The notes under the pieces: generated by a model
Databases searched by the model: none
What the model saw: the letters and a program-made list of their open reading frames with translations, nothing else
Told to the model about the DNA's origin: nothing
Part shown: positions 9,626 to 57,250 of the stretch, in pieces
How positions within the stretch are numbered: position 1 is the stretch's first letter
How the letters are laid out: the number at the start of each line of letters is the position of its first letter
Made by a program: the position numbers and the translations under genes
Source of the DNA: a virus
Taxonomy: Duplodnaviria; Caudoviricetes
IMG/VR virus record: IMGVR_UViG_3300033463_000070
Coordinates: 1 to 64,000 of that record
Length of the DNA: 64,000 nt
Direction: 5' to 3' (one strand)

Positions 9626-10465
9626 ATGTGCACATCACTACATTACCAAAACTGCATGGGCAGAAACTTTGATTACGAAATTTCTTACAAAGAAGCTTGC
9701 AGAATTCATGACAAAGAAAAATACAAAATTATCGGTATGGTCACCGATATCATACAAGAATATCCACTCTATTACGATGCAATGAATGAATGCGGTTTAT
9801 GTATAGCCGGATTAAACTTTGAAGGCAATGCATACTACAACAAATACAAAAAAGAAAATAAAAACAATATCGCACCATGGGAACTGCCAGTCAAAGTTTT
9901 AGGTAACTGTAGAAATGTTATGGAAGCCAAACAATATCTTGAAGATGTTTGGATTTATGATAAGAATTTTAATGAACAAATGCCTAATTCCTCGCTTCAT
10001 TGGATGATATGTGATAAAAATTTTTGTATCACAGTTGAACCAATGAAAGATGGGCTTAAAATATATAATAATGAAGTTGGTGTTTTAACCAACAATCCTC
10101 CTTTCCCGGCTCAATTAAAAGCATACAGAAGAAGTAAAAAAATCGAATCTTTATATAAAAAACTCTATAAGAAATTACTCAAAAAAGAATATTCAACTCG
10201 GGGAACTGAAACACTTGGCGTGGCAGGCGACTTAACCAGTATGAGCAGGTTTGAAAGAGCCTGTTATTACAAAGACAAAATGATATCAAAAGGCAAGCAA
10301 GCAAGCGAGACATTTCATCTTCTTGATTTGGTGAAGCAACCGTATGGGGCTACACCAGTTGGGGATAAATTTGAATATACTATTTATGAAGTTGTTTATG
10401 ATATGAAGGAAGGAAGCATGCAAGTAAAAAATTATGATAATGAGGTTTATGAGAGGAGGTTGTAG
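9626..10465 (+). CDS. bsh: Choloylglycine hydrolase family Ntn-hydrolase (bile salt hydrolase / penicillin V acylase-like)
   Basis: N-terminal nucleophile Cys2 (MCT), GRNFDY, YPLYYDAMNECGL, GLNF, VGVLTNNPPF, SRFER and KFEYTIY are all CBAH hallmarks. Confidence 0.9.
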   Translation: MCTSLHYQNCMGRNFDYEISYKEACRIHDKEKYKIIGMVTDIIQEYPLYYDAMNECGLCIAGLNFEGNAYYNKYKKENKNNIAPWELPVKVLGNCRNVMEAKQYLEDVWIYDKNFNEQMPNSSLHWMICDKNFCITVEPMKDGLKIYNNEVGVLTNNPPFPAQLKAYRRSKKIESLYKKLYKKLLKKEYSTRGTETLGVAGDLTSMSRFERACYYKDKMISKGKQASETFHLLDLVKQPYGATPVGDKFEYTIYEVVYDMKEGSMQVKNYDNEVYERRL

Positions 10466-21728: not shown

Positions 21729-24700
21729 ATGGAACTTTCAGAAGTAAAACAACTAACCCATAAAATAATTAAAATTAATATTACAAACAAAAATTATCAT
21801 TCATCATATAGTTATATCACCAGACAAATAGTTTTATCAGATGTTTCTGATGAAGAAGTTGTACGATTTAGTCTAGAAGAAAATTCCAATTTCATCCAAC
21901 ATCAATGTGATGATGAAAATAGAAACATTTTTTATGTAGTAATTCCAAACAAAGTTAATTCAACAATTTCATTATACGCTCATTACTTCCCTGCTGAATT
22001 ATATGAATACGAAGAAGATAAGAATATTTATTGGAGTTTTAATTTTCAAGATTTACTCACAGAAAATCCACTAAATGATAGTGGTCATAAATATCCAATT
22101 ATTGAAACAGATGAAAGCACAGGATATCGAAAAGAAGCAGGGTATAAAGATGGAAGTATACAATTAAAATCTATATTACCAGATAGTATAGATGGATATA
22201 AAAATCCAAATTATAAAAATTTTACAAAAACCAACATTAATGATGATAAAGATATGACTCAACAAGGTTATACTCCTTTATCAAGTCGATATAGAAAACC
22301 ATATAAATACTTTAATGAAGCTCCAAGTCTAAATGGAGACCCATATTGGAGTGCAGAAGAAGCTCATGGAACAATATGTAAAGAAACACCATATTGGGAA
22401 ATAAGAATTAATAGAGATGGTTTAAGTCGCTTAGTTGCAGATACAGTAGATGGAAAATATTATCCTATTTCTGTTCATCTTGGTTATGAATATTTACCAA
22501 CCAGTACACATTATCACCAACATTATTATGGTTTTGAGGGAGAATGTCCAGACCCAAATGATATCTATGTTTTTGAGGGAACAAATATAACAGATGTTAA
22601 TGATGGTTTTGGGTCAAAAAATAATTATCGTATTATTAAAAGAACAGAACCTTTTGATGACACTTATAGTATGTTTGTAGACCATGAATGTATATTACCA
22701 ATTAATTTATTGGAATGTAAACCAGAAGGATATATTACTAAAAATAAATGTTATGATTATTATACCTATACAGCTATAGGTAATGATATTCCGGGACGAG
22801 CTGTTAATTTACAAGCTGGAGAACAATATAGTTTACGATATTTTATTTTTGTACCTAATAAAGTTGATGCTCTTGTTGATGAAATAATGACAGCTGATTG
22901 CTATCTTGCTATCAATGGACAACGAATTGAAGATGAATTTTTGGAATATGACAAGCAAGAAAGAAATCAATGGGTATATCATGAAGTACCATTTATCGCT
23001 CAAGGTGGTGGAGCAGATTGGCTAGAAGTTATCGGACCTCATAGTAATCCAGAAATAGAATTCTTTTTAACTAAAATTGAAATCGAAAAATTTGTTGAAT
23101 ATAGACCAACTTTAACTTACAATGAACATGGATTAAAAGTAGAAGAAGCAACTTTTGATAATACGTGTACAAACGAAAGAAAAGAAGGCTCCAAAGGAGT
23201 ATTAAGAATTCCAGAAGTCAGCGAAGAGAACAAAAAATGGGAAATAAGAACAGCTACTAATGTTTGGGAGCAAAAAACTCAATTACCAAATCCACAAGGA
23301 AAAGTATTCTTCATTTTAGGAGACGATGTTAGTCTTGATTATGACGAACTTACAAGTAATTTATATTATTCTCATTTAGATGATAATGATTATGGAATCA
23401 AATATTATCCATTTTATATTGATGAAGAACCACCAAAAATAAAAATACCAGATAGACTTGGTAATAATATCGATGATTTAATTATAGCAATAACAAAACA
23501 ATATGATTTTGAATCAGAAAATAATCCAGATTATGGAATGTTAGAAATAGATGAATATAATTATATAACAATTCCAGATAAATATCAAAAAACTGGAACA
23601 TATACAGTTCATATTGAAAATTATATTACAGGAGAAGAATACGATTATAATTACAAAGTTAAACCAAAAAGAATCAGAGATGACTTAGAAGGTTTTGAAG
23701 AAGGAGATTTAGGACAAAGTGACGTAAGAGACGAAGATACAAATAATAAGTTATATAATTTATCATATGATATATCCACTGGAGATTTAAATTTTACTTA
23801 CCCAAGAACTGTGCAATTTTTTAAGGCAAGAAATAATCATTTTGAATTATCATTAATTGATAGTTATGATAATATCATTACTCGTGGCAGTACGAGAGTA
23901 GAATTTATTAAAGGACGAACTACTTTTGAAGAAGCATTAGTAGATGCGGGAAAAAGAGATGTTCAAAAAGATGGAAAAGTATATTATAGAAAAATTAATT
24001 TATCAGATTTAGAATTAGATAAAGATGAAAATGGAAATGAAATAGCAACGATATTTCATTTAAGAATTTATTATACAGACCCATGTTACGATGAACCAAT
24101 TATTGATTTCAAAAAAGTATGGGTGGAACCATTAAATCTTGATTTAAGACCTAGTATTAATGGTAACTACAAAAATAGTAGATTCATATCATATACACAA
24201 GATGGTACACCTGTTTATGGAAAAGATTGCGAAGGATACAAACAGTCAGAATATTATGAAGATGATGACGCAAGCAAATCTGATAGTAATGAAGACGAAG
24301 AAGAACAAGTTCAACAACGTCAAACTGAATACCAAAACTTTGAAACACACGCTCCATTAGTTGATGATGATACACACAAAAGTTATTATGGTGGAGTGTG
24401 GGGTAATTATCCTATTTTAGATAAAACACATTTCAAAGGAACAAGAATTGTTCGAGGAGGATATTATATTTATGATGTTGAAGCTGAATTCCCATTAGAT
24501 ATATGTGTAGATGTTGTTAACAAATTCAGTTCAGGTGAACTACAACCAATACCAATTGGACATTATTGTGAGTTATCAATTGATGACAAAGTTATTCAAA
24601 CAACATTAAGTGATGCAGAAGGAAAAGCGCATTTCTATATTGATTTGAATGATGCTCCTTTGCGAAAACACACAATTAAGATAGAATGTTTCGACAGATA

Positions 24701-25832
24701 TTGGGAGCCAATTAAATATATTTACTTTGATTTAATTATCTGTGAAGATACAACTAAAATTAGACCAGCAGTGCCAATAGCATTTAAACACTTCCCATAC
24801 TGTCCGGGATATGTTAAAACCGATGATGAAACACAATGTGAATTTACTTACCTAACTGATGACAATCTTAATTTATATATCCCTCAAGATGATACTTTAT
24901 TGCTTGATTTCGATAATAGTAAAAATCATTTTAACTTCAAATTATCAGTATACAGACACAAACCACAATATAAAAATATAAGTAAATTTACCAATAGAAA
25001 CAGTACACTAATTTATTCAAAAAATATTTATAACGAACAAGATTTGCTTTTATTTATATCAGCTGGATTAAATTTTGATACAGATTGCAAATTAGAAAGA
25101 GATGGAATAGAAGCCCAACACCCAAGTACAACCTCACCATCAGAAACAACACAAATAGCGAACTTGCGAGATAATATTAAATTACATGGAAAAACTCCAT
25201 CTGTAAATATGCTTGCTTACTTTAACGCTAACGAACAAATTATAAGAACAAATCAAGCTACTACAACAATTTCACCAGAAATTATGTGTGATTTAATGTT
25301 ATATGCTCCTATAGTAAATCTAAAAGAACTTAATAATACAACTATAGCAGACTTATTTAATTTCTATCGTAAAAATACATTAGATAATCCAGTAAGATAT
25401 TCTATCGTCACAAGTAGTCTTGACGGAGAAAATAGATATAGAACTCATAAAAGAACATTTACCGTACATTATATGAATAATGTTAGAGCAAATAATTATA
25501 AAATGCAATGGGACGGAAAAAATAATAATGAACCACTCTACACCTTAAATGAAGAAGGAAAATGGATTTTCAAATCAATTGAAATTAAAAAAACAGCAGC
25601 ATACAATCCAAATGATATTCGTTCTATAGATAATGATAATGAATATATAAAAGAAGGAAAAATAGAAGTATATCAAAATGGACAATTATATCATTATCCA
25701 CCTATTGTTTATGATAACGGAGATTATGTGTGTAAAGTTGAAAATATAATCAAAAAAGAAGCCAATGAAAAAATACAATTAAGATATGTATTTAAAGATG
25801 GATACCATTTTATAACAGATAGCGAGGATTAA
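21729..25832 (+). CDS. Giant acidic virion protein (tail/baseplate-associated)
   Basis: 1367 aa, SD AGGTGA; carbohydrate-binding-module-like segment (VNLQAGEQYSLRYFI...NQWVYHEVPF). Confidence 0.4.
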   Translation: MELSEVKQLTHKIIKINITNKNYHSSYSYITRQIVLSDVSDEEVVRFSLEENSNFIQHQCDDENRNIFYVVIPNKVNSTISLYAHYFPAELYEYEEDKNIYWSFNFQDLLTENPLNDSGHKYPIIETDESTGYRKEAGYKDGSIQLKSILPDSIDGYKNPNYKNFTKTNINDDKDMTQQGYTPLSSRYRKPYKYFNEAPSLNGDPYWSAEEAHGTICKETPYWEIRINRDGLSRLVADTVDGKYYPISVHLGYEYLPTSTHYHQHYYGFEGECPDPNDIYVFEGTNITDVNDGFGSKNNYRIIKRTEPFDDTYSMFVDHECILPINLLECKPEGYITKNKCYDYYTYTAIGNDIPGRAVNLQAGEQYSLRYFIFVPNKVDALVDEIMTADCYLAINGQRIEDEFLEYDKQERNQWVYHEVPFIAQGGGADWLEVIGPHSNPEIEFFLTKIEIEKFVEYRPTLTYNEHGLKVEEATFDNTCTNERKEGSKGVLRIPEVSEENKKWEIRTATNVWEQKTQLPNPQGKVFFILGDDVSLDYDELTSNLYYSHLDDNDYGIKYYPFYIDEEPPKIKIPDRLGNNIDDLIIAITKQYDFESENNPDYGMLEIDEYNYITIPDKYQKTGTYTVHIENYITGEEYDYNYKVKPKRIRDDLEGFEEGDLGQSDVRDEDTNNKLYNLSYDISTGDLNFTYPRTVQFFKARNNHFELSLIDSYDNIITRGSTRVEFIKGRTTFEEALVDAGKRDVQKDGKVYYRKINLSDLELDKDENGNEIATIFHLRIYYTDPCYDEPIIDFKKVWVEPLNLDLRPSINGNYKNSRFISYTQDGTPVYGKDCEGYKQSEYYEDDDASKSDSNEDEEEQVQQRQTEYQNFETHAPLVDDDTHKSYYGGVWGNYPILDKTHFKGTRIVRGGYYIYDVEAEFPLDICVDVVNKFSSGELQPIPIGHYCELSIDDKVIQTTLSDAEGKAHFYIDLNDAPLRKHTIKIECFDRYWEPIKYIYFDLIICEDTTKIRPAVPIAFKHFPYCPGYVKTDDETQCEFTYLTDDNLNLYIPQDDTLLLDFDNSKNHFNFKLSVYRHKPQYKNISKFTNRNSTLIYSKNIYNEQDLLLFISAGLNFDTDCKLERDGIEAQHPSTTSPSETTQIANLRDNIKLHGKTPSVNMLAYFNANEQIIRTNQATTTISPEIMCDLMLYAPIVNLKELNNTTIADLFNFYRKNTLDNPVRYSIVTSSLDGENRYRTHKRTFTVHYMNNVRANNYKMQWDGKNNNEPLYTLNEEGKWIFKSIEIKKTAAYNPNDIRSIDNDNEYIKEGKIEVYQNGQLYHYPPIVYDNGDYVCKVENIIKKEANEKIQLRYVFKDGYHFITDSED

Positions 25833-39605: not shown

Positions 39606-40190
39606 ATGGAAAAAATAATACGTGAAGAAATACACGATATTGCTGACAAAATATATGAGTTACAACAAAAATCAGAAAAACTTACTAATGGTCAGCGATA
39701 TGCAGCTATCAATGAGATAGAAAAAAATATTACTCCACTCCGTATTGACCTTCGTAAATTAGAGCGTGAGTTATACGACCAAAATAATAATAAACGAGAA
39801 ATCATTAAACAAATTGATACAATAGGGAAACAAATAACAGAGCTTGAAGAAATAAAAAGTGATTTAACTGCTCGTATTAATACAGAAAGTGAACATACTA
39901 GACAGGAACTTAATGATAAAATTATTAACTATATGAAAGAAGAGCTCACTCCTCTAAAAAACGCAACATTAGACAATCAAAAAGAAATCGCCGAAATAAA
40001 AAAAAGCATTTATGAATTAAAACTTGATATAACAGAACGAGAAAAAAATAGGGACGTTGAAGAAGCGAAAAAATTCGACCGCTTCAAATGGATAATTACT
40101 GGAGTAGTTGCTGCCTTAGCAGCAATCTCCTCATTATCATTATGGCTTGAACCAAGTATTAGAATATTGGTTCGAATATTGACTAGTTAA
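39606..40190 (+). CDS. Coiled-coil protein with C-terminal transmembrane helix (XhlA/holin-like lysis protein)
   Basis: Long heptad region then RFKWIITGVVAALAAISSLSLWL; last gene of the late block. Confidence 0.5.
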   Translation: MEKIIREEIHDIADKIYELQQKSEKLTNGQRYAAINEIEKNITPLRIDLRKLERELYDQNNNKREIIKQIDTIGKQITELEEIKSDLTARINTESEHTRQELNDKIINYMKEELTPLKNATLDNQKEIAEIKKSIYELKLDITEREKNRDVEEAKKFDRFKWIITGVVAALAAISSLSLWLEPSIRILVRILTS

Positions 40191-40387
40191 TATTTGAGTG
40201 CTAACTCAATATCTTCTTCTTTGACGGTTTTTCTGCCTGCGTGTTTTGCGAAACCGTTTGCTCTTAATGCTACATCTGCAGCCCAGTCTTCAGCACTTGC
40301 TACTAATCTTGTAACTGCTTTATCACTACTTCTTATTGCTCCTACTGATTTTATAATTTTTTTTCCGCTTGCTTTTGGTATAACCAT
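40187..40387 (-). CDS. Archaeal histone (HMf/HMt family)
   Basis: Gap-free alignment to HMfB with P4, I11-I12-K13, G16-A17, R19, S21-D22 and HAGRKTVKEEDIELA; SD GGAGG. Confidence 0.92.
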   Translation of the reverse strand: MVIPKASGKKIIKSVGAIRSSDKAVTRLVASAEDWAADVALRANGFAKHAGRKTVKEEDIELALKY

Positions 40388-41478: not shown

Positions 41479-42018
41479 TTAATAATTTTTTACTCTAACT
41501 TGAAAATAAGATTGTGGATGGTCACAAACGGGACATACTTTAGGAGCTTCTTCTCCTTCATATATGTGTCCACAATTTAAGCATTGCCATTTTACTTCCT
41601 CATCACGTGCAAAAACTACATCATATTTTATATTATTTAATAATGTTTGATATCTTTTTTCATGTGCTTTTTCGATTTTAGCTACTTCTGCAAACAAGAA
41701 AGCAATATGTTCAAACCCTTCTTCTTCTGCTTCTTTTGCAAAATTTTTATACATTTCAACCCATTCATAATGTTCTCCAGCGATACCATCTTTTAAATTT
41801 TCAACTGTGTCTGGCATACCATCATGTAGGAGTTTAAACCAAATTTTTGCATGTTCTTTTTCATTATTAGCTGTTTCTGTAAAGAAATTAGCTATTTGTA
41901 CATATCCATCTTTTTTGGCTTGGCTAGCATAATAATCATATTTAGTTCTTGCCTGCGTCTCACCAGCAAATGCAGTTAATAAATTTGCTTCAGTTTTTGT
42001 TCCTTTTAAATCTTTCAT
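41479..42018 (-). CDS. rbr: Rubrerythrin
   Basis: [21 protein letters not shown]; di-iron ligands NEKEH, GEHYE, EKAH; rubredoxin knuckles CLNCGH and CPVCDHP. Confidence 0.95.
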
Positions 42019-45404: not shown

Positions 45405-45876
45405 TAACAGCACCATCCACTCTAATGTCTACTAACTGTGCGAATCGTTCTCCTTTTGTTATTACAAAATCTACTGGAAGATAGTTCATAATTAAGAAAG
45501 AAAGCGAACCGAAATAGCCATTATCACCAACTGCAGTCATTACATGCGTTCCGCAACGCAATAAAGTTGAACGAGGTCTATAAAATTGTAAAGAATCTTT
45601 GTCTATTTTTATTTTATTTTGTACAGTAGCAATGTAGGGAACATTAGGTCGCAGACTGTAAACATTTTTTATCTGCCCATTAACCGATAATGCGTTCATT
45701 ACTAATTCACTTCTATCTGGAATAACTTTTAATCCATCTATAATTCCATAAAATTTATTATTTCCTACATCAAATTCTTCTATTTTTCCTAAACGCAAAT
45801 CAAGTCCACCGGGCTGAAAACACTCGTCATCAAATTCTAGATATCTTTTTCTTAATATTTTTTCGCCATTAATCAT
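45370..45876 (-). CDS. dut: Trimeric dUTPase, archaeal dCTP-deaminase-like type
   Basis: QPGGLDLRL, PRSTLLR, VGDNGYFG, GERFAQL and C-terminal YDGDYQ; the deaminase Glu after the G-x-x-x-L motif is absent. Confidence 0.8.
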   Translation of the reverse strand: MINGEKILRKRYLEFDDECFQPGGLDLRLGKIEEFDVGNNKFYGIIDGLKVIPDRSELVMNALSVNGQIKNVYSLRPNVPYIATVQNKIKIDKDSLQFYRPRSTLLRCGTHVMTAVGDNGYFGSLSFLIMNYLPVDFVITKGERFAQLVDIRVDGAVNEYDGDYQESE

Positions 45877-46532
45877 TCTTCTTCCTCCGCTACTTTTTTA
45901 AATTCTTTATAAATTTCTTTCGCAAATACAACAGCTGTTCTTTTTAAAGCTAATAAATGCAAATGCTTTCTATTACTTTTTGGATGTTTGTATTGATATT
46001 TACTTTTATAATCTTCATATAATTGACTGTAACGATAATCATCACGTATCAATTTAACAGTACAACGCATAATAGTTTTATTTAATCCTTCACAAAAATC
46101 AATAGGGTCTGTTTTTTTATTGGCTACTTTCTTTCCATTAATATTTCTTTTAACTTTATAATATTTATTACTACTATTTCTTATAACAGGAGCAAGACCC
46201 GCATATGATATGAAATGCTTACGATTTTTAAATCTTTTAATATCTCCTATTTCGACTATTAATTCTGCCGCATCGTATAAATTTATTGATGGAATTTCTT
46301 TCAAAAATCCCATATATTCATTTGAAAAGTATAATATATTTTGTATTTCATCTCGTAATTTTTGCAATGGTTCATCAAATGGTTTAATACTTATATCTTC
46401 AAGTCTTTTTGACCTTGATTCATTTATATTTCCAAGCATTTTTAATCGATGTTTATTACTTCTGGATGCTTGAAAAACAGTTTTATTTGTATTAAATAAT
46501 ATAGTTAAAACTTTTCTTTCGTTTGTATCCAT
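45873..46532 (-). CDS. IS110-Tnp/Nop-domain protein without a RuvC domain (TasA-like)
   Basis: Coiled coil, then FLKEIPSINLYDAAELIVEIGDIKRFKNRKHFISYAGLAP, then YSQLYEDYKSKY..HP...KHLHLLALKRTAVVF; no DEDD RuvC region. Confidence 0.65.
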   Translation of the reverse strand: MDTNERKVLTILFNTNKTVFQASRSNKHRLKMLGNINESRSKRLEDISIKPFDEPLQKLRDEIQNILYFSNEYMGFLKEIPSINLYDAAELIVEIGDIKRFKNRKHFISYAGLAPVIRNSSNKYYKVKRNINGKKVANKKTDPIDFCEGLNKTIMRCTVKLIRDDYRYSQLYEDYKSKYQYKHPKSNRKHLHLLALKRTAVVFAKEIYKEFKKVAEEEE

Positions 46533-47158: not shown

Positions 47159-48097
47159 CTATATATATAAATTTTGACCTTTACATTCGTTTGAACAACA
47201 TATACCATTTGCTTTTTGAGTAGGACAGGAAGAAAATAATATATCATCTCTTGAAAAAAGATACTCTAATTGTCCTTCTTCTTCTATACAATGATAGAAT
47301 TTGTTTGATGATAATGATTGTTCTAATATATGTTCTACTTCTTCCTCAGAATAACCATCATCACGTAAATAACATATTAATTCACGACGTTCATGGTATC
47401 CTAAATCAGGAGTAGATAATAAACATTTTACACAAGGAGGAAATTCGGTACTAAAATCAATTTTTCCTATCGTTTCTGCTTTTAATGGTGATATGATTTG
47501 CTTTGTTTCGTCAAAAGGTTGTAGTGATAATCTTGTTTTTCCATGTATATAGTCACAATTATTGTTATTCTTTTTTGCCAATTTACATATATCATTATAT
47601 GATAGTTCAAATAACTGTTCATATGTAATTGGAATACAATACAAACCAGTTTTTAAATTCTTAGTACCTATTATCCTTGATACCCTTCGTAGGTCACCTA
47701 TAACAGCTGGGTCTGACGTAGATTGTGTTCTCTGATGTAAATCTTTGACAAATTTTTTAATTGCTAATTTAGGTTGCTGCAAACTTTCCTCCGGTTTAGT
47801 CATTATAAAAATATGAAAGCCTCGACCACTAAACCGAATAAAGAACAAATAATCCTTGTTATTTAAGTACTCTGCCACCCTGCGTACATCTTCATAGAAC
47901 TTCAAATCTTTATCGTAATCAAAATCCAAAAATACTCTATCTACATAAGCATTTTGAGCATTAGGAATATCTTTATAATCATACACAGATACATACATAT
48001 TTTTTTTACCATTATATATCTGAATAAATTTATTAATCTCTTCTTTGTCTTGAACTGTTATTCTTATTTTTGGGATAAATAATTCTTTAACTAACAT
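47159..48097 (-). CDS. Archaeo-eukaryotic primase: PriS catalytic domain fused to a PriL-like Fe-S C-terminal domain
   Basis: FLDFD (motif I), FSGRGFH (II), DPAVIGD..RVSRIIGT (III); then FPPC...HERR...SC-x8-CC-x3-C. Confidence 0.85.
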   Translation of the reverse strand: MLVKELFIPKIRITVQDKEEINKFIQIYNGKKNMYVSVYDYKDIPNAQNAYVDRVFLDFDYDKDLKFYEDVRRVAEYLNNKDYLFFIRFSGRGFHIFIMTKPEESLQQPKLAIKKFVKDLHQRTQSTSDPAVIGDLRRVSRIIGTKNLKTGLYCIPITYEQLFELSYNDICKLAKKNNNNCDYIHGKTRLSLQPFDETKQIISPLKAETIGKIDFSTEFPPCVKCLLSTPDLGYHERRELICYLRDDGYSEEEVEHILEQSLSSNKFYHCIEEEGQLEYLFSRDDILFSSCPTQKANGICCSNECKGQNLYI

Positions 48098-48494
48098 CTT
48101 CATCAATCTCCAACAAATCTATATTATGTTGGAATTCAGCATCTAACACCATTTCAGCTAATTTAACTGCAAATTGACAACCCGGGTCCATTGATAAACC
48201 CGAATCTGTATCAATTTCGTAATACGGCCATTCTAAACATGCATCAAATCGTGTAGCATATTCATCACATGTTTTTCCGTTAAAATATTTACAATTTATT
48301 GTTTTACAACATTCTCCACATTGCTTACAAAACTCTGGATAGTCTTGTACCATTTCAAAAGTAAAATAATTTTCTGAAGCACGCATTAATACTGTATCAA
48401 TTATATCAGCAATTAAATCATCTTCCAATTGAGGATATTTCATTGTGTATTTGTCTATCATTTTTTTTATAAATTTTAAATGATTAATTGGCAT
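48087..48494 (-). CDS. YkgJ-family (CxxCxxCC) metal-cluster protein
   Basis: FCKQCGECC...C...C..Y.TRFDACLEWP; TAATG coupling with the upstream gene. Confidence 0.8.
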   Translation of the reverse strand: MPINHLKFIKKMIDKYTMKYPQLEDDLIADIIDTVLMRASENYFTFEMVQDYPEFCKQCGECCKTINCKYFNGKTCDEYATRFDACLEWPYYEIDTDSGLSMDPGCQFAVKLAEMVLDAEFQHNIDLLEIDEDVS

Positions 48495-49211: not shown

Positions 49212-49823
49212 TTATTCATCTCCTTTCCAGTGAGCATCTAGTCCAACATAATGAAATCTTCCCGGTTTGATTCCTAATTTGTCTGCTACATATAATTGTA
49301 CTGTCATAAGAGCATACATATTTGATGGAAATGCATATCTTATATCATTTGACCTAAATATAACTGTCATTTCTAGTTGTCTTTGATATATAGAACATTT
49401 TATCATAATTAAGCAAGGAATATCTTCAAGATATGTATCTGTCTGTGGGTCATATGTTATTGCGATAGCTCTACGAGTATTTTCATCTTCTTTAAGTCTA
49501 TCAATCATAACTTGATATTGGTCTACATCAAAATATTCTATTAGTCTATTCCCATATGTATATACAAAATCATGTATATTTCCATCTAATAATTGGTCAG
49601 CATATTTTTGTAAACCCTCATTATTAAAAAAGGTATTTTTTGGTACTTTGACCGCTTTTGCATATCCAAAATCATTAATATGGTCTTCAAAATGTAATGC
49701 TACAAAAGGAATTTGATAAACAATATCTCCTCTTTGGTCAATTACTTTCTTACCTTGTGTCGTTATTATGTAATATAAATAATTAAATGCATCATCTATA
49801 TTATCATAAACTTTATTACTCAA
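49212..49823 (-). CDS. thyA: Thymidylate synthase, archaeal-type ThyA
   Basis: YTYGNRL, TRRA, catalytic IPCL, FRSND and FPSN. Confidence 0.88.
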   Translation of the reverse strand: MSNKVYDNIDDAFNYLYYIITTQGKKVIDQRGDIVYQIPFVALHFEDHINDFGYAKAVKVPKNTFFNNEGLQKYADQLLDGNIHDFVYTYGNRLIEYFDVDQYQVMIDRLKEDENTRRAIAITYDPQTDTYLEDIPCLIMIKCSIYQRQLEMTVIFRSNDIRYAFPSNMYALMTVQLYVADKLGIKPGRFHYVGLDAHWKGDE

Positions 49824-50290
49824 TTTATTGCCTCCTCTATTAATTTATGGATTATATTGATAGTGAACCATTCTTCAAAATAACACCCTCCAATATAATA
49901 TCCGTCATAATATAATCTAAATGGTCTATTTCTATTTTGATTTTTGTGACTTATATAATGTGTCTTTTTACTATCCCAAAATTTATATTTTCCATTATTT
50001 TTTCTTTTAGGATATTGTCCAATTCCCCCTTTAGTGAAATTAAACTTAGGATTATAATACTTTATAAATAATCGTTCATAAGCATCTAATTCGTCCTTAG
50101 AACATTCCACTTCAATTTGAATAGAATATCGTAAAGGGTCTGATTGTAATACCCTATTAATTGGTTGAGTATTTTTAGAGCTTTTAATTAAATGTTGTCT
50201 ATGTCTTTTATATATATCTTTGCTTTGTCCTATGTATACAACTTTAAAGTCATTTTTTATATCTCTGTAACTATAAATTCCGCATGGCAC
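49820..50290 (-). CDS. GIY-YIG homing endonuclease (short)
   Basis: CGIY...YIGQS...R...E..FI...NPKFN..KGG. Confidence 0.85.
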   Translation of the reverse strand: MPCGIYSYRDIKNDFKVVYIGQSKDIYKRHRQHLIKSSKNTQPINRVLQSDPLRYSIQIEVECSKDELDAYERLFIKYYNPKFNFTKGGIGQYPKRKNNGKYKFWDSKKTHYISHKNQNRNRPFRLYYDGYYIGGCYFEEWFTINIIHKLIEEAIN

Positions 50291-50321: not shown

Positions 50322-52814
50322 TTAAATATATGTTTGTTTAACTGCATTTATAAATGTATCGCTATTTTTACTTGGTTTATATTCTATAAACATTCCTGCC
50401 ACAATTCCCTCTGGCAAAATATTATAACCACTTTTACAAGTGATTTTACTACAAGGACCCTCTGGCTCCATTAACGATAATCTTAAACATTTATTTCCTT
50501 TCTTACTTATAAAGTAAGTTGCTTGCTTTACTAATGCTTTACGAGTATATTTCTTACTTGCTAGCATACTTGTTATTAATTGATATGATGTTCCATTAAT
50601 GTAAGCTTCTTCTGCCATAAATGGGTCATGAACACTATAATCAATCAAGAAATGCATATATAATTTGCCATCATAACAATGACATTTTGTAATAATAACA
50701 TGTCCTGTCTCGAAATAATCACCATACTTTGCTACAATAGCTTCAGAACATGATATACTTTGATTAACATCTTTATTCTGTAAATGAAGAATACTATATC
50801 CTTGTTGATTATCTACGTCAATTATCACACCTTTAACATACATTTCTTCATTATCTTCATCAGTTGCATTAAGTAAAGGAGTTAACATATTATCATAAGG
50901 TGTTTTTACACTATCAATATATTCTTCTCTAATAGAAAATGATATTGCAGAGAATTCTTTGTCTAATATTTCTTTTTTGGTGTATATTCGTTCTTCGTAA
51001 CCTTTTTCTCCTTTCTTTAAGAAATTAAGCAACTCGCCACGCTTATCTATGATGTCCTGCATATCTGTAAGACCAAAATCAAATGCACCTGCACCAATTA
51101 AATTTTCTTTACATCGTTTATTACACTCTCTTGGTGCCATTCTCTGACAAAAGTTATCGAATGATTCAAAATCACCATTAGCTCTTTCTTTTAAGATAGC
51201 TGTGGATACTTTATCAGATATTGTATTAATAATATTAAGACCGATATAAATTTTATTATCTACAATAGTTGTTTCGGCTTCACTTAAATTAATATCTGGT
51301 GAACATAATTCTGCATCACTATCTTTTATCATATTTAGTATCTCTATCCTTTTTTCTTCTTCGCTATTCTTTACATTTTGAAGCATAGCAACAGCAAACT
51401 CTAAAGGATAGTAAGTTTTTAACCAAGCAGATTGATAAGCAAGAACTGCATATCCACATGCATGTGCCCTGTTAAATGAATAATCAGATGATTTTTCAAT
51501 ATTATCCCATAATTTCTTAGCAACTTCTTCATCTACATTATTATCTATACAACCATTAATAAATTTAGGTTTAAATATATCAAATGCTTCTTTTTTCTTT
51601 TTAGAAATTGCTTTACGAAGATTATCTGTTTCAACATCACTCATACCTGCAAGGTCACGAGCAACTGCCATAGCATCTTCTTGGAAAATCATAAGTCCTT
51701 GAGTACTACCTAATGTATCTTTTAATCTTTCATCAAGATATTCAGGCTCTTTACGACCAAATTTATAATCAGCATATAATTTATCCATTCCTGAATTCCT
51801 AGCTCCCGGTCTTATTAATGATACTAGAGCCATTAACTCATTAAAATTCTCAGGCTGTACCATTTTGACTCCAGCTCTTCCCGCAGCTTTTTCTAATTGA
51901 AATAGCCCCATGGGATTTTTACAAATAGATTCGTAAACTTTAGGGTCGTCAAATTCATATGGTAAATTTACATCATCTTTAATAAGATTTAAACAATCAC
52001 GTTGAACATCAAGAACTTTAATACCTAATGTATCGTTTTTTAAAAATCCAAGTGCATTACATTCGCTTCCATTGTTGGATATAATTGGTTTACCACTTAC
52101 ACTTATAACAGAACAATATTTATCCATTATATCATCTAAGATAATCATAGCACCAGCATGAACACCATAGTTTTTAGTTAAACCTGCTAATGGGTCAATA
52201 TAATCTCTTACTTGCGGGTTTTTATCTAAAAATTCCATTATTTTTTTATTATTGTGATAATCATCTTCTTTATTAGATAAAAATGAAGTAACTTTATTAA
52301 CTTGTGCGAAGTCTAAACCTAATCGTGCAGATAAATCTTTAATTAATACTTTTGGTGTAAAATTAACTTTATTTAAAACCTGACCACATCTATCTTCACC
52401 AAAATGTTCTCTAATCAAATTCAATACATCGTCTCTACCATCAGAACTAACATCTGTATCTATATCTGGTAAACTTCTCTGTATCCTTGTTTTATTAAGA
52501 AATCTAGCAAAAGATAAATTATATGGTTTTGGGTCTATCTTTGTGATATTAAGAAAGTAACAAACTACGGAAGCAAGACAACTACCTCTTGCTGGGCCTC
52601 TGAATATATCTGCTTCATCTATTAATGCACATATATATGCTGTATTCAAAAAGAAATCTTCTAAATCAGCTCCAAGAATAACATCAAGTTCTTCTTCAAG
52701 TCTATCATGATACCAAGAATCATCATAGCAACCTTTAACCTTCATACCTTTGATACACATATCTTTAATATATTTTTTATTATCAATAGATTTAGGTTTA
52801 AAATCTCTAATCAT
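50322..52814 (-). CDS. dnaE: Family C DNA polymerase (DnaE) palm/thumb/fingers/OB portion
   Basis: GPARGS, PDIDTD, HAGAM, KNDTLG, FQLE, LIRPG, IFQED, YSFNRAHACGY, WLKTYYP, PDINLS; SD GAGGTGAG. Confidence 0.93.
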   Translation of the reverse strand: MIRDFKPKSIDNKKYIKDMCIKGMKVKGCYDDSWYHDRLEEELDVILGADLEDFFLNTAYICALIDEADIFRGPARGSCLASVVCYFLNITKIDPKPYNLSFARFLNKTRIQRSLPDIDTDVSSDGRDDVLNLIREHFGEDRCGQVLNKVNFTPKVLIKDLSARLGLDFAQVNKVTSFLSNKEDDYHNNKKIMEFLDKNPQVRDYIDPLAGLTKNYGVHAGAMIILDDIMDKYCSVISVSGKPIISNNGSECNALGFLKNDTLGIKVLDVQRDCLNLIKDDVNLPYEFDDPKVYESICKNPMGLFQLEKAAGRAGVKMVQPENFNELMALVSLIRPGARNSGMDKLYADYKFGRKEPEYLDERLKDTLGSTQGLMIFQEDAMAVARDLAGMSDVETDNLRKAISKKKKEAFDIFKPKFINGCIDNNVDEEVAKKLWDNIEKSSDYSFNRAHACGYAVLAYQSAWLKTYYPLEFAVAMLQNVKNSEEEKRIEILNMIKDSDAELCSPDINLSEAETTIVDNKIYIGLNIINTISDKVSTAILKERANGDFESFDNFCQRMAPRECNKRCKENLIGAGAFDFGLTDMQDIIDKRGELLNFLKKGEKGYEERIYTKKEILDKEFSAISFSIREEYIDSVKTPYDNMLTPLLNATDEDNEEMYVKGVIIDVDNQQGYSILHLQNKDVNQSISCSEAIVAKYGDYFETGHVIITKCHCYDGKLYMHFLIDYSVHDPFMAEEAYINGTSYQLITSMLASKKYTRKALVKQATYFISKKGNKCLRLSLMEPEGPCSKITCKSGYNILPEGIVAGMFIEYKPSKNSDTFINAVKQTYI

Positions 52815-52823
52815 TCACTCACC

Positions 52824-53762
52824 TCATACTACTTTCTTAAGAAAAATTTTTTCAAAATCCAAATGCTTATCAAATTTAGGAATCACCCTATCATATTCTG
52901 GCATTTCAAAATAACATTTTTCAGCTATTTTATGAGTATTATCAATACACAATTGTATTATATCATCATCTACTCCTGACATTCTTCCAAATTTATAACA
53001 CAACTCTGTATTACCTAACACATTACTTTCAAGTGTATCTGATATTTCTGATTCAGCTTTTTTCCAATTAATGCTTTGTAATTTTTTTCTTAATATCCTA
53101 CCCGCATCAGTAAGAACATGACTATCAAAAGTATTAATTAACCATTTGCAATCAGTATCTTCATATAATTTTATAAGTTTTTCATTTAATATGTTCTGAG
53201 GATATAATCCTTTGTCATTTTGCCAAGTTGGATGATATTGAAGCTCTATTGCAACATTATCTTTGCCAAATTTATCAAGCAATTTATTAAGAAAGGAATA
53301 AGCTATGTCATCTTGTCCTTTTTCGAAGTTTTGACATATATATGATAATGCACAAGCAGTTGATACAAAAATTCCTTCTGTATTTTCAAATAAAATATCA
53401 TGAGGAAGTAAAGGTTTATAATAAAAATGGTCAGTAACAGATAATCTTTGCATTTTACGAATATTAGTTGCTCCTACATCATTCATAGCCAAACAAACTA
53501 AATGATAACGATTTCTGTCTTGTGGCTTTTCTAAAGTAGGTTTGCAATAAAATTCGTTTCCAAAAATTGGTTTAACATTTGATTGCTTACATTCCTGCTG
53601 TAGAGCATACCAATTAGCTACTGTACCATGGTCAGTAATTGCAATATACTCTTGACCATAATCTTCTACTTGTTTAACTAAATCCGGAATTTTGATGACA
53701 GAATCACCAATACTAGCATCAGTATGTAAATGAAGATTTACGAAATTTTTTGTATTTGTCAT
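52824..53762 (-). CDS. Stand-alone PHP domain of DnaE (probable 3'-5' proofreading exonuclease)
   Basis: HLHTD, GDS, ITDHG, GNEFY, YHL, TAC, IELQ, FDSH; ATG 53762 with SD GGAG. Confidence 0.9.
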   Translation of the reverse strand: MTNTKNFVNLHLHTDASIGDSVIKIPDLVKQVEDYGQEYIAITDHGTVANWYALQQECKQSNVKPIFGNEFYCKPTLEKPQDRNRYHLVCLAMNDVGATNIRKMQRLSVTDHFYYKPLLPHDILFENTEGIFVSTACALSYICQNFEKGQDDIAYSFLNKLLDKFGKDNVAIELQYHPTWQNDKGLYPQNILNEKLIKLYEDTDCKWLINTFDSHVLTDAGRILRKKLQSINWKKAESEISDTLESNVLGNTELCYKFGRMSGVDDDIIQLCIDNTHKIAEKCYFEMPEYDRVIPKFDKHLDFEKIFLKKVV

Positions 53763-54801
53763 ATAAAAATTCTCCTTTTTCAATTTCATTAATCATTTTA
53801 TTATATTTTTGCTTATCTTGAATATCCCAATTATATCCGTCTTTTGTTACTATATCTTTTAATTTAAATAAATCTGTATTTTGTTTTCTGTATATTACCT
53901 GTCCATTTTTCTCAATTATATATTTAAAAGTATATCCTTGTTTAGCATTTGTTTTACAAGTGCTTAAATGTAATACTCCTGTAGGATTAGTTTTTTGTAT
54001 TTTTCCGTATGCCATTAAATTATCTCCCCTTTTTATAAGTTTATCTGTATTTTCATTGTAAAATAATTTTGCCCATGGTAATTTTTTTGCCTCTACTTTT
54101 TTCTTTAATTCGTAAAAATTTTTTGATGTTAAAGAATAATTATCATATTTGTACATCCATATATTTGTTGTGTTATTATAACTGACCCCAAAATATCCTG
54201 ATGTATTTTGAGCGATTTTAAAAAAATCTTTTTCTGAAAAAATATTAAAATCAACATAAGTTTCTTTTTTAATTTTTTCTACTTCATCATTATGAAATAT
54301 TTTCTTCCATAATAATCCCTGTGATTTAACTTTATATTCAAGTATATTTATATTTTTAGATGATATTTTACATCTTCGTTTATTTTTGTAATAAGAATAA
54401 ATCCAACGAAAATTTTGAGTACCATGACAATCTACTTGTTTATATACTCTATAATACCCTGTCTTATTACCTCTATTTTTAGACATTTTTTCACGTGTTT
54501 TTTGTGACAAATGAAAAACATCTCCACCAGATGATAAATTATAATGTTTATCATCTTTATATGTATTATAATATTGTATCCAATATTTTTCTCGTTCATT
54601 TAATATATCTCTATTACATTTTTCAACAATAATTAAATTAAAATTATTTTTTTTATATTTATTAATTGCTCTATCAATATAAGAATTTTCAATACAATCT
54701 GACTTACAATGTTCATTAAATCTCTGTTCTATATTAATTGATTGCCCAATATACATCTGTCCTGTTTTTTTGTTTTTTATCATATAGATGCCACAAGTCA
54801 T
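53719..54801 (-). CDS. GIY-YIG homing endonuclease with three C-terminal AP2-like DNA-binding repeats
   Basis: CGIYMIKNKKTGQMYIGQSINIEQRFNEH...NEREKYWI...YN; repeats KTGYYRV, TSGYFGV, PTGVLHL each ending L...V....L/Y.W. Confidence 0.85.
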   Translation of the reverse strand: MTCGIYMIKNKKTGQMYIGQSINIEQRFNEHCKSDCIENSYIDRAINKYKKNNFNLIIVEKCNRDILNEREKYWIQYYNTYKDDKHYNLSSGGDVFHLSQKTREKMSKNRGNKTGYYRVYKQVDCHGTQNFRWIYSYYKNKRRCKISSKNINILEYKVKSQGLLWKKIFHNDEVEKIKKETYVDFNIFSEKDFFKIAQNTSGYFGVSYNNTTNIWMYKYDNYSLTSKNFYELKKKVEAKKLPWAKLFYNENTDKLIKRGDNLMAYGKIQKTNPTGVLHLSTCKTNAKQGYTFKYIIEKNGQVIYRKQNTDLFKLKDIVTKDGYNWDIQDKQKYNKMINEIEKGEFLYDKYKKFRKSSFTY

Positions 54802-54802
54802 A

Positions 54803-55006
54803 TTAAAACCTCTTGAGGTCATCTATACTAAGACTTAATAAAAAATCAGGTTCGGGGATTTCAATTTTAATAACATTATTACGAATGTTACGATGATGAA
54901 CTACCCCATAATTTCCTTTTGTCTTTGTTACTACTTTATCTTTTGTTTTTTTGTATAAATTTAATATATTTAATCCATCATGATATAATATGTCATAATC
55001 ATTCAT
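54803..55006 (-). CDS. Hypothetical protein
   Basis: ORF track; ATGA coupling with the upstream ATPase. Confidence 0.5.
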   Translation of the reverse strand: MNDYDILYHDGLNILNLYKKTKDKVVTKTKGNYGVVHHRNIRNNVIKIEIPEPDFLLSLSIDDLKRF

Positions 55007-55890
55007 TTTTTATTCCCTTGTTTATTGTTATTTTTGGGAAATATTAAATCAAATAACTCATCATATTGAGTTTCAAGAGTATCTTCAACATTGTTTACTC
55101 TCATAAATATATGTCTTTTGTTTACTAAAAATATATCGCCCCTATCTTTTTGTATAGTTGCAACATAATTATCAATTGAACCTTCTGTTTCACGTGTTAA
55201 TATTATTCTCATTGAACATTCATCAATTAATCTTTGTTTTACTGAAGCAAATTTATCGTCATCTGCTAATTCAGGTATGAAATCAGAGTGTGATATAAAT
55301 ACCACTGGTACATCTAAATCCATATATGCTGATGAAAATTCTCTAAAGAATTTATTTCTTAATTTCCATATTGCTAATTGTGCTCCACTATCTGCGTCCA
55401 AATTTCTTTCTAAACGCATTTTAGCTTCTGCGAATTCAAGCAAGAAAGAAACTCCATCAACTATAACACCTTTAATGTTTATGCCGTTTTCTATTGCCAT
55501 ACGTACTGTTCCGGCTGCTGATGTTACATTATTAACAGTGGCTTCTTCATCTTTAACTGATGCTCCTTTATTGTTAGTTTTGAATTCATTAGGATTATAT
55601 ACTTTAATTTGTCCTTTTTGATAATATTCTTCATAAAAAATTTGAATAATTTCTTTTCCAGAATTATCCACATCTATATAAAAAATTACCTCATCATCTT
55701 TTAAATCACGAGTTAATAAAGATAGTGAAAGTGAAGTTTTAGCTGTACCATTCTCTCCAGATAATAATATTTTTTTATTAACTTTTGCATCTTCTTTTTT
55801 CTTATCTGACTCAAAAATTTCTTTAAAAATAGTTTCAGACAAAGTTTCCTTACTTTTATTAGTTTTTAATGCTTTATTTCCGATTGCCAT
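55003..55890 (-). CDS. RecA-fold ATPase (AAA_24 / Sak4-like annealase)
   Basis: Walker A GENGTAKT, FYIDVDNSG, Walker B VIVDG, VVFISH; SD GAGGTGA. Confidence 0.75.
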   Translation of the reverse strand: MAIGNKALKTNKSKETLSETIFKEIFESDKKKEDAKVNKKILLSGENGTAKTSLSLSLLTRDLKDDEVIFYIDVDNSGKEIIQIFYEEYYQKGQIKVYNPNEFKTNNKGASVKDEEATVNNVTSAAGTVRMAIENGINIKGVIVDGVSFLLEFAEAKMRLERNLDADSGAQLAIWKLRNKFFREFSSAYMDLDVPVVFISHSDFIPELADDDKFASVKQRLIDECSMRIILTRETEGSIDNYVATIQKDRGDIFLVNKRHIFMRVNNVEDTLETQYDELFDLIFPKNNNKQGNKK

Positions 55891-56072: not shown

Positions 56073-56238
56073 AATCATCCACCACATTATTCAATTCATT
56101 TAATATAATTGCTTTTGATATAGGATGTTTTACTAATATAAAATCTTTTTCAAGATTTTGAATTCGAGTACGTACTTCACGAGTACGTATCTCAAATAAT
56201 TTATCAGAATTTTCAAAATCTTTTGGTTGATAAGGCAT
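56017..56238 (-). CDS. Hypothetical protein
   Basis: TAATG coupling at 56238. Confidence 0.5.
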   Translation of the reverse strand: MPYQPKDFENSDKLFEIRTREVRTRIQNLEKDFILVKHPISKAIILNELNNVVDDYVGRKSILTGASSTRRES

Positions 56239-57200
56239 TATAGTTCTACCTCTTCTGATATAGGTAAAAAACCACCTACATGATAATTAATTTCACCATC
56301 TTTTTTCTTATATGCATTAACAAAAAGATATCCATATGCACCATCGTAAATATTCAATCCTGCAAGTTCAGTCGGAGTAAACCAAACATCAGCATCGTCT
56401 TCTCCAATTTCAAAATTGACTACAACATTTTTGGTAGGGTCATCATTAGTTCTAATATCAATACATTCTCCTTCAATTACACCAAAAACATTTCTATCAA
56501 AATTTTTAGATTCTAAATATTGCAACAAATCAGCAGAAGATTCAAAAATGATATCTCCGAAAAATTGTCTAACATAATTTAAATAGACATCAATAGTATC
56601 ATCATCAAATGCATCAGTATCATCTGTTACAATCGCATTATTAAAGTATTGTATTTTACTACCTTTTATAATTTTACTTGCATTTCCCTCTTTTAAAGTA
56701 AATTTAGCTTCTTTACAAATAGGTACTACTTTTTTCATAGCATAACTGCCAATACTAATTTCACGAGGAACTACTTTATCACCATCTTGAAAAATTCCAA
56801 TAGCATTAGCAGTAGCATAATTTTTATCAATTACTTTGCCTTTATTAAATCCTTCAGTGTGAAGATATTCTCCTTCTCCTTTTGCCATACCTTTTTTAAT
56901 TGCTGCTTCTAAACCATGTTCTTTAACAAAATTATTAACTTGATTCCATGCATAGTTATTATAACTGTTAGTTCTGAATCTCATGAGTAAAAAACCATCC
57001 ATTCTGTATCCAGATTGAACCAATCTTTTTAAACTTCCTCTAGTTTTTCTTAAACTTCTTAAAGTTTTTGTAGCATCATCCATATCAGATGGCATTTTCT
57101 CATAAATTTCATTAAAAATGCTATCCATTTCTTCTTGGCTAATACCATGTTCTTCAGCAAATTTTGTGTTTTTTTCTTGTTCACGTTCTATCTTATTCAT
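56238..57200 (-). CDS. Hypothetical protein, possibly an OB-fold ssDNA-binding protein
   Basis: SD GGAGG, ATG 57200; first gene after a strong promoter and upstream of the Sak4-like ATPase; beta-rich C-terminal half. The function is inferred from context only. Confidence 0.3.
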   Translation of the reverse strand: MNKIEREQEKNTKFAEEHGISQEEMDSIFNEIYEKMPSDMDDATKTLRSLRKTRGSLKRLVQSGYRMDGFLLMRFRTNSYNNYAWNQVNNFVKEHGLEAAIKKGMAKGEGEYLHTEGFNKGKVIDKNYATANAIGIFQDGDKVVPREISIGSYAMKKVVPICKEAKFTLKEGNASKIIKGSKIQYFNNAIVTDDTDAFDDDTIDVYLNYVRQFFGDIIFESSADLLQYLESKNFDRNVFGVIEGECIDIRTNDDPTKNVVVNFEIGEDDADVWFTPTELAGLNIYDGAYGYLFVNAYKKKDGEINYHVGGFLPISEEVEL

Positions 57201-57250
57201 TATAATTTCCTCCAAGTTTTTTTAGATATGTTATTATATTAATAATACAC

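Follow-up and report, generated by a model that had tools for sequence, protein, structure and literature searches.

A DnaE polymerase encoded by separate PHP and polymerase genes in a likely virus of gut methanogens

The IMG/VR virus record IMGVR_UViG_3300033463_000070 is a fragment of 84.7 kb (58% complete, guanine-plus-cytosine (GC) content about 29%), and its positions 1-64,000, a stretch of 64,000 nucleotides called here the window, carry two adjacent genes on the minus strand that together encode DnaE, the family-C alpha subunit of DNA polymerase III (Pol III). The upstream gene encodes the PHP domain and the downstream gene the polymerase proper, and this two-gene alpha subunit appears to be the single recognisable DNA polymerase in the parts of the genome examined. 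We propose, with a probability of about 0.8, that the record stems from a virus of methanogens with a DnaE made from two genes, that the PHP protein proofreads in trans, that the split is ancestral to a whole virus clade and that a C-terminal OB module of the polymerase was fused back after having been a gene of its own. The analysis was purely computational and made use of Pfam, PHROG, Rfam, CheckV, AlphaFold, Foldseek and maximum-likelihood trees.

The two genes of the polymerase

The PHP gene (52824-53789, minus strand) encodes 321 amino acids from its first ATG and ends in ...KKVV-TGA. The true start is likely to be Met10, at position 53762, which was the start chosen in the initial annotation of this DNA and which gives a protein of 312 residues, in closer agreement with the relatives. 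The open reading frame (ORF) matches the Pfam family PHP (PF02811) with an E-value of 4e-31 over profile positions 2-164 of 164, and its product aligns to residues 5-186 of the Thermus aquaticus DnaE. The nine canonical metal ligands of the domain (H20, H22, D29, H54, E79, H96, C146, D222 and H224), which had been described as intact, are confirmed as such and are invariant in an alignment of 13 sequences that reaches down to 34% identity; the first seven align with the PHP domain of the T. aquaticus enzyme. This set matches the active-type signature HHDHEH[C/H]DH that is used for calling PHP domains active (PMC12926913). The C-terminal tail of the protein carries a conserved IPKF motif, of which P304 and F306 are invariant, and the stop codon falls about 15 residues past it.

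The polymerase gene (50322-52814, minus strand) encodes 830 amino acids, with the palm and thumb at about residues 16-264, the fingers at 287-426, the (HhH)2 domain at 502-579 and a C-terminal module at 591-830. Its match to Pfam DNA_pol3_alpha (1.6e-48) begins at residue 16 and spans profile positions 3-260 of 260, and it is followed by matches to DNA_pol3_finger (1.7e-36) and HHH_6 (7e-20). The palm aspartates D117 and D119, in a PDIDTD motif, and D261, in an LKNDTLG motif, do not vary among 13 sequences, the most distant of which are about 35% identical; going by the motifs, they would be the equivalents of D401, D403 and D555 of Escherichia coli.

Taken together, the two ORFs hold a complete and non-overlapping set of domains in which nothing is duplicated, and their summed length of about 1140 amino acids is that of an ordinary DnaE. 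The palm with its three aspartates, the fingers, the (HhH)2 domain, the C-terminal OB folds and the active-type PHP signature are all present, and the enzyme departs from the family in that its PHP domain is encoded by a separate upstream gene and not on the same chain as the polymerase. The core of PHP, Pol3 and (HhH)2 has been described as universal within one polypeptide in family C (PMC3919608, PMC12926913). The domain boundaries of both ORFs place the break at the PHP/palm linker, as had been claimed from the sequence. Linker-like motifs had also been pointed out on both sides of it; IPKF is indeed present and conserved, whereas IRDF, although present at the N-terminus of the polymerase, is not conserved and is replaced by QxTF in the relatives.

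Distribution of the split

We collected 80 further viral loci with the PHP profile and classified 83 loci in total. The nearest 17 (the window, L007, L011-L025 and PhiF1) are without exception broken between PHP and palm, with PHP identities running from 69% to 29%, and in all 66 of the more distant viral loci the PHP domain runs on into the beginning of the palm, with a few genes interrupted elsewhere, near core residue 110. A protein search returned more than 100 protein clusters of cores without PHP (about 599 amino acids), on contigs of up to 158 kb. L007, which is also G001:C64 and JAGAIU010000011.1, measures 146,781 bp, is collinear with the window's genome over about 65 kb and resembles a complete virus genome of the split clade. 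It was deposited in a metagenome-assembled genome (MAG) named 'Clostridia bacterium', from water deer caecum, and it combines the split DnaE with genes for a histone and for a pseudomurein endoisopeptidase.

In a maximum-likelihood tree of 42 sequences the split rows make up one side of a branch with a support of 99 in the Shimodaira-Hasegawa-like approximate likelihood ratio test (SH-aLRT), nested among fused phage DnaEs, and the DnaE of the window is of bacterial or phage origin. This tree came from a quick search under LG+G4 and was rooted on a bacterial DnaE. It left out the loci broken elsewhere (L027, L037, L040, L046, L047, L062, L073 and L079), the near-duplicates of a group of 1114 amino acids (L050-L088, apart from L056, L072, L074 and L078, which were kept, and three already listed as broken) and the exact or near duplicates L020, L021, L035 and L090. 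Judged from these sequences, the PHP/core break was inherited from the common ancestor of a virus clade to which PhiF1 belongs.

Polymerases of family C count as a hallmark of bacteria, and the initial annotation had held a DnaE in an archaeal virus to be unexpected. This view has to be given up, since a precedent exists: in the GenBank record MK994522 of the isolated Methanobacterium virus PhiF1, whose host is Methanothermobacter thermautotrophicus, two neighbouring ORFs bear the annotation 'DNA polymerase III DnaE superfamily'. We find that these two ORFs have the same PHP/core split as the window, with adjacent PHP and core genes broken at the same alignment position and both products about 30% identical to those of the window. 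PhiF1 has features of its own, in that ORF58 is a family-4 uracil-DNA glycosylase fused N-terminally to PHP, ORF57 is a core with a Hint-like (intein-like) insert, and the two ORFs overlap in different frames; moreover its virus has a genome of 74 kb with a higher GC content and is thermophilic, unlike that of the window. Our literature search turned up no paper on DnaE in archaeal viruses, an earlier discussion in the 2023 methanogen-virus compendium being possible, and none that discusses the PhiF1 polymerase.

Much closer to the window stands a group of gut or rumen viruses of about 140-158 kb (among them IMGVR_UViG_3300028833_000074, 3300045988_170622 and JAGAIU010000011.1). They belong to the same clade and share with the window the replication module, 62-73% identity of the core, the PHP/core break and ribosome-binding sites of the GGTG type.

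Host of the virus

The gene order of the window is collinear with ORF51-61 of PhiF1, including an AAA_24 ATPase, a methanogen-type thyA, a PD-(D/E)XK nuclease, a PriL-like protein, an ERCC4 nuclease, a Transposase_20-like protein and NrdD. The window also carries an archaeal histone gene (40187-40387, minus strand; 66 amino acids; Pfam CBFD_NFYB_HMF, 4e-10). Look-alikes of this histone are archaeal, mostly from Methanobacteriota, a control search matched archaea only, and homologues were found in four related virus genomes, in two of them as two copies. In addition, the collinear contig G001:C64 encodes a pseudomurein endoisopeptidase with Peptidase_C71 and PMBR domains. Because of the collinearity with PhiF1, the histone genes, the endoisopeptidase on the collinear contig and the RPA-like and PriL-like proteins described below, we consider an archaeal host very likely on sequence grounds. 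The window would then come from a large tailed virus whose host is a gut methanogen with a pseudomurein wall, Methanobrevibacter being the most likely genus. That the DNA belongs to an archaeal virus, as the initial annotation had assumed, is supported by the PhiF1 synteny, the histone genes and the endoisopeptidase of the relative.

Several observations weigh against this assignment. No pseudomurein endoisopeptidase was found in the 58%-complete record, for which reason the host evidence for the window's own virus is indirect, nor in six other related genomes, and relatives have been binned in MAGs labelled 'Clostridia' (G001:C64) and 'Bacilli' (P0109). Furthermore, a homologue of bile salt (choloylglycine) hydrolase (9626-10465, plus strand; CBAH, 3e-54) lies among the tail-fibre genes, and its nearest named cellular counterparts are those of Firmicutes (Lactococcus, Enterococcus and Lactiplantibacillus), at 41-44% identity. 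Together with the bacterial or phage origin of the DnaE, these points could suggest a bacteriophage of a low-GC Firmicute, in which a DnaE would be unremarkable and the archaeal-looking genes would have been imported.

We judge such a phage improbable. The replication module is collinear with that of PhiF1, which was isolated on Methanothermobacter; histone genes occur here and in the four relatives, with only archaea in the control search; and the Peptidase_C71 and PMBR lysin on the collinear contig of 147 kb is specific for pseudomurein. As for the bins, the Clostridia MAG has dnaN and dnaB on other contigs and no PCNA, as would be expected if a viral contig had been mis-binned, and the two different class labels given to close relatives point to binning noise; the placement of G001:C64 in that MAG is probably a binning artefact. 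The viral bile salt hydrolases form a group of their own, with proteins of about 280 amino acids on contigs of 100-150 kb. The gene was therefore discarded as a host marker, the viral copies that group apart making it uninformative.

Predicted association of the two products

We modelled a complex of core residues 1-590 with the PHP protein, each with an alignment of 13 rows. The interface score ipSAE was 0.88, against 0.00 for the best control, at least 97% of the contacts agreed between runs, and the partner had a predicted local distance difference test (pLDDT) score of 90; the mark set for ipSAE is reached by 58 of 80 solved complexes and by 2 of 110 mismatched pairs. The tail of the PHP protein, which is conserved (F306, residues 299-321), packs in this model on residues 50-67 of the polymerase. 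As far as the model can tell, the PHP and polymerase products probably associate, and without a covalent link they would restore the normal arrangement of a DnaE. Judged from its ligands and from the model, the PHP subunit would be a 3'-5' proofreading exonuclease that acts in trans.

Solved DnaE structures exist, so that the pass of the model may only reflect a likeness to them; it supports binding, and the assembly of the complex, its stoichiometry and its exonuclease activity are predictions. The PHP protein might instead have become an independent enzyme, a phosphoesterase or a repair nuclease, that no longer binds the polymerase and leaves it with no intrinsic proofreader. Stand-alone PHP proteins do exist in bacteria, and the fusion of the PhiF1 PHP to a uracil-DNA glycosylase suggests a role of the repair type. 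Nevertheless the PHP gene always lies directly upstream of the polymerase gene or is parted from it only by a mobile homing endonuclease gene, and the C-terminal tail past the catalytic barrel, from IPKF onward, is conserved and forms the polymerase contact in the model. In solved DnaEs, moreover, PHP forms one integrated structure with palm and thumb. An independent PHP enzyme is for these reasons quite unlikely, and we keep to a PHP subunit that works with the polymerase.

The junction between the two genes

The junction reads GTA GTA TGA GGT GAG TGA ATG, so that the two ORFs share a frame and are parted by two in-frame TGA codons. The PHP stop TGA lies at 52824-52826 and the polymerase ATG at 52812-52814, and the 9-nucleotide spacer GGTGAGTGA (52815-52823, minus strand) contains the second TGA. 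A Shine-Dalgarno-like site, GAGGTGAG (52818-52825, minus strand), overlaps the PHP stop and bears out the earlier statement that the polymerase gene has its own ribosome-binding site. Sites of the GGTGA/GAGGT type precede many genes of the window. The distance of this one from the ATG is short, about 4 nucleotides, which counts against the reading proposed here. Since the ATG stands 9 nucleotides past the PHP stop and the Shine-Dalgarno-like site overlaps the PHP end, translation of the polymerase would probably be coupled to that of the PHP gene.

TGA is the stop codon of 13 of 50 tightly tiled genes of the window, often in ATGA overlaps, and by this count it acts as a normal stop in the genome. 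An alternative code with TGA as a sense codon would fuse PHP and polymerase, and also two large structural genes; it was rejected because of these TGA stops and because relatives have TAA or TAG at the junction. The closest of them, L103, comes from a separate assembly of another sample (SRR22404427) and has a polymerase core 97% identical to that of the window. Its junction reads GTA GTA TAA GAGGTGAGTAA ATG, with a TAA stop and a spacer of 11 nucleotides that puts the ORFs in different frames. At about 69% identity L005 uses TAG and L006 TAA, with other spacers and each with ribosome-binding sites of its own.

It could still be argued that one fused polypeptide is made, by TGA read-through or recoding, by frameshifting, by intron splicing or by trans-splicing of a split intein. 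The TGA codons are in frame, and this gene family is rich in inteins and homing endonucleases, with inteins in PhiF1 ORF57 and in P0082; 'fractured genes' with split inteins and a homing endonuclease are on record (PMC2677866). However, the use of TGA as a stop in the window and the TAA or TAG stops and out-of-frame ORFs of near relatives contradict read-through, and 9 nucleotides are too short for an intron. Rfam found no intron in the window or in the insert of L007, and we take its one weak snoRNA-like match as chance. Neither window ORF gives a Hint or intein match in Pfam, and the ORF ends leave no space for split-intein halves of about 100 and 35 residues. We regard a fused product as very improbable.

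That an artefact or a fresh pseudogenisation (a sequencing or assembly error or a new nonsense mutation) interrupts a single DnaE gene is hardly credible, for although both ORFs are in one frame, 9 nucleotides apart with two TGA codons between them, at least 17 independent loci, among them a cultured virus and the 97% relative from another sample, are broken at this place, the stops being TAA, TAG or TGA and the spacers and frames differing, the polymerase has its own start and Shine-Dalgarno site, and the catalytic residues on either side are invariant across deep divergence. Given the TAA, the spacer of 11 nucleotides and the different frames in that relative, together with the negative Rfam search and the lack of space for intein halves, assembly error, read-through and splicing are, by sequence comparison, effectively excluded for practical purposes. 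The initial annotation was thus right to take the split as genuine and not as a sequencing error, the same break being present in the independent 97% assembly, in further relatives and in the cultured PhiF1.

A similar arrangement is seen elsewhere in the window, where two structural genes on the plus strand (17799-21722 and 21729-25832; 1307 and 1367 amino acids) are in the same frame and separated by a TGA and two codons, like the PHP and polymerase genes. Their orthologues in G001:C64 are likewise separate genes.

Homing endonucleases around the locus

The gene pair is flanked by two free-standing GIY-YIG homing endonuclease genes on the minus strand. The first (53719-54822; 367 amino acids; Pfam 2e-11) lies directly upstream of the PHP gene and overlaps its 5' end, and the second (49820-50290; 156 amino acids; Pfam 2e-8) lies directly downstream of the polymerase gene. 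In L103 the upstream site (1533-2057) holds a different and shorter GIY-YIG gene of 174 amino acids, and the downstream site has none, thyA following directly after the polymerase gene. Turnover of these genes is thus seen between viruses with 97% identity in the polymerase core.

The gap between PHP and core is in the window only the 9-nucleotide spacer, with no homing endonuclease between the halves. In L007, a gene of 221 amino acids with GIY-YIG and NUMOD3 domains exactly fills this gap and overlaps both neighbours. Free-standing homing endonucleases are known to split genes in T4-like phages, and by analogy they are most likely the agents of the breaks seen here. The PHP/core break would probably have arisen, or been fixed, through free-standing homing endonuclease genes that are still mobile around the locus. 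The link with the origin of the split is circumstantial, since only one sampled relative has the gene in the gap, and this counts against the proposal. With the T4-like split genes and the 'fractured genes' (PMC2677866) the locus shares an essential replication gene in adjacent pieces with a homing endonuclease at or beside the break, as in L007. The fractured genes differ in having split inteins, whereas in the window the homing endonucleases flank the pair and no intein halves are found, for which reason no protein splicing is expected.

The C-terminal OB module

The C-terminal module of the polymerase (50325-51044, minus strand; residues 591-830) consists of a helical linker followed by two OB-fold barrels. 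The AlphaFold model of these residues, with a pLDDT of 85, gave the helical linker and two OB-like barrels, and a Foldseek search with it matched single-stranded-DNA-binding proteins (SSBs) with two OB folds and HIN domains. The orthologue in L007 has a weak Pfam OB match.

Most close relatives encode their polymerase in three genes, for PHP (about 310 amino acids), for the core (about 599 amino acids) and for a third ORF of about 240 amino acids that corresponds to residues 591-830 of the window's protein. The gut and rumen viruses of 140-158 kb have the OB module as such a third gene, in contrast to the window, which has core and OB module in one ORF of 830 amino acids. At the position where the third gene of the relatives starts, the window has Met591, in the context ...GAFDFGLTD-MQDIIDKR....

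We built a tree of 28 sequences from the core only. Its deeper branches, L016-L022, have two genes and its crown of 23 rows has three, with two nested exceptions, the window with P0003 and, separately, P0012. This tree needs at least three changes of gene number, a single split and re-fusion on two occasions. The Met that once began the third gene survives in both fused forms, and in P0012 the old tail of the core survives as well. By parsimony on the core tree and by these relics of Met and core tail, the gene of 830 amino acids is probably a secondary re-fusion of the OB module. The most likely course of events would be that in the sub-lineage around the window the module was split off as a third gene and was then fused back in the window's virus. 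That the two-gene form is nested in a mostly three-gene clade had been missed in the initial annotation.

In some relatives the gap between core and OB gene carries extra ORFs, so that the second break is also a site of insertion. L012 (IMGVR_UViG_3300045988_170622, 7207-7391), L014, L015 and L023 have a small ORF or inserted genes of about 1.7 kb that separate core and OB module.

Neighbouring replication genes and the question of the clamp

Upstream of the PHP gene the window encodes a protein of 325 amino acids (56238-57215, minus strand) with tandem OB folds and no Pfam or PHROG match. Its AlphaFold model (pLDDT 87) resembles in Foldseek the AB domains of Teb1, RPA70 DBD-A/B and HIN domains, and the gene is kept upstream of PHP throughout the gut branch of the split clade. 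According to its predicted fold it is probably the viral SSB, of the RPA-like kind. The idea that it might be a hidden clamp was rejected on account of this fold. Beside the PHP gene lies a conserved gene for a RecA-fold ATPase (AAA_24/KaiC-like; 55003-55890, minus strand; 295 amino acids), which is ORF60 in PhiF1.

An archaeal-type primase had been reported in the window, and this is true only in part. The protein concerned (47159-48106, minus strand; 315 amino acids), whose PhiF1 counterpart is ORF55, has a domain like the primase large subunit PriL. Its match to Pfam DNA_primase_lrg has an E-value of 0.0019, below the Pfam cut-off, while the L007 orthologue passes at 4.8e-6 and the PhiF1 protein stands at 0.005; a PHROG 'primase' match reached 1e-13. 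A catalytic subunit (PriS) was not found. The ERCC4 nuclease gene is directly followed by a gene for a Transposase_20 protein (IS110-family C-terminal; 45873-46532, minus strand), as also in PhiF1, where it is ORF53. Because it has the same position in both viruses, this gene appears from sequence to be a conserved part of the replication module and no insertion sequence.

The initial annotation had found no beta clamp and no DnaB in the window, which holds. Four related virus genomes that are complete or nearly so (95-100% by CheckV) likewise gave, at Pfam sensitivity, no match for PCNA, beta clamp, MCM or DnaB. The initial annotation had also suggested looking for clamp and helicase genes in the rest of the genome, and a helicase candidate does lie beyond the window. 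This is a protein like the superfamily 3 (SF3) helicases, of the D5/NS1 type and with DUF5906, which is encoded at the end of the record (82050-84699 of G000; 18050-19999 of L003) and also at 144389-146626 of G001:C64. It is the only helicase candidate seen, and its 440 N-terminal residues, which have no domain match, may hold a primase.

In the polymerase itself a pattern scan found neither a beta-clamp motif of the QL[SD]LF type nor a canonical PCNA-interacting-protein (PIP) box. Only about 15 residues, with no clamp motif among them, separate the OB region from the conserved helix KRGELLNFL. This helix looks like a PIP box but was rejected as one, since all DnaEs have it after (HhH)2 as a conserved structural element.

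We tentatively raise the possibility of a hybrid replisome, in which a dismantled family-C polymerase works without a beta clamp alongside partners of archaeal or eukaryotic style (SSB of the RPA-like kind, PriL-like primase subunit, SF3 helicase), and in which either the freed termini dock to host PCNA or the OB module gives processivity with no clamp; in this form the proposal is doubtful. If true, it would mean a natural C-family replicase inside an archaeal cell with a PHP proofreader that acts in trans.

Among the remaining genes of the window is one for a protein of 179 amino acids (41479-42018, minus strand) that by eye resembles a rubrerythrin, having EX2H motifs of the ferritin-like type and CxxC...CxxC at its C-terminus, and that is 61% identical to its counterpart in G001:C64. 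No tRNA genes were detected in the window.

Comparison with known polymerases

In the Pol III core of E. coli the polymerase alpha and the 3'-5' proofreader epsilon are separate gene products that assemble non-covalently. The window follows the same logic, polymerase and proofreader being encoded apart. It differs in that the proofreader of E. coli is a DnaQ-type DEDDh exonuclease and alpha keeps an inactive PHP domain in cis, whereas in the window the PHP domain itself is in trans.

Bacterial DnaE1 enzymes (T. aquaticus, 2HPI; Mycobacterium tuberculosis, 5LEW) share with the window the order PHP, palm/thumb, fingers, (HhH)2 and OB, the HHDHEH[C/H]DH ligands and the palm aspartates. They are, however, single polypeptides, with beta-clamp motifs both inside the chain and at its C-terminus and with a C-terminal domain that binds tau. 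The window has a separate PHP and no QL[SD]LF-type motif, and a second OB-like barrel takes the place of the C-terminal domain. The split-intein DnaE of cyanobacteria is different again, since it is broken at another site of the protein and its halves are ligated by trans-splicing, whereas the window has no intein halves.

Part of this was already visible, as the two-gene layout is present in the GenBank record of PhiF1 and in many relatives, which limits the value of the window in itself. What the window adds is a junction with a double in-frame TGA, an OB module that was likely fused back, and homing endonuclease genes that turn over between relatives at 97% identity.

Significance

The findings concern a clade of abundant gut and rumen viruses, apparently of methanogens, in which DnaE is the only recognisable polymerase in the genome parts examined and in which the PHP domain has been kept as a separate gene across a divergence as deep as about 30% identity. 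Such an enzyme would offer a natural system for PHP proofreading in trans, where exonuclease and polymerase can be purified and mutated apart. A bacterial replicase that works in an archaeal cell would also raise the question of what serves as its clamp. Moreover the locus seems to keep a record of homing endonucleases breaking genes at domain boundaries, and of the reversal of such a break. For the biology of methane, the split DnaE helps to define the replication machinery of what appears to be a major group of methanogen viruses.

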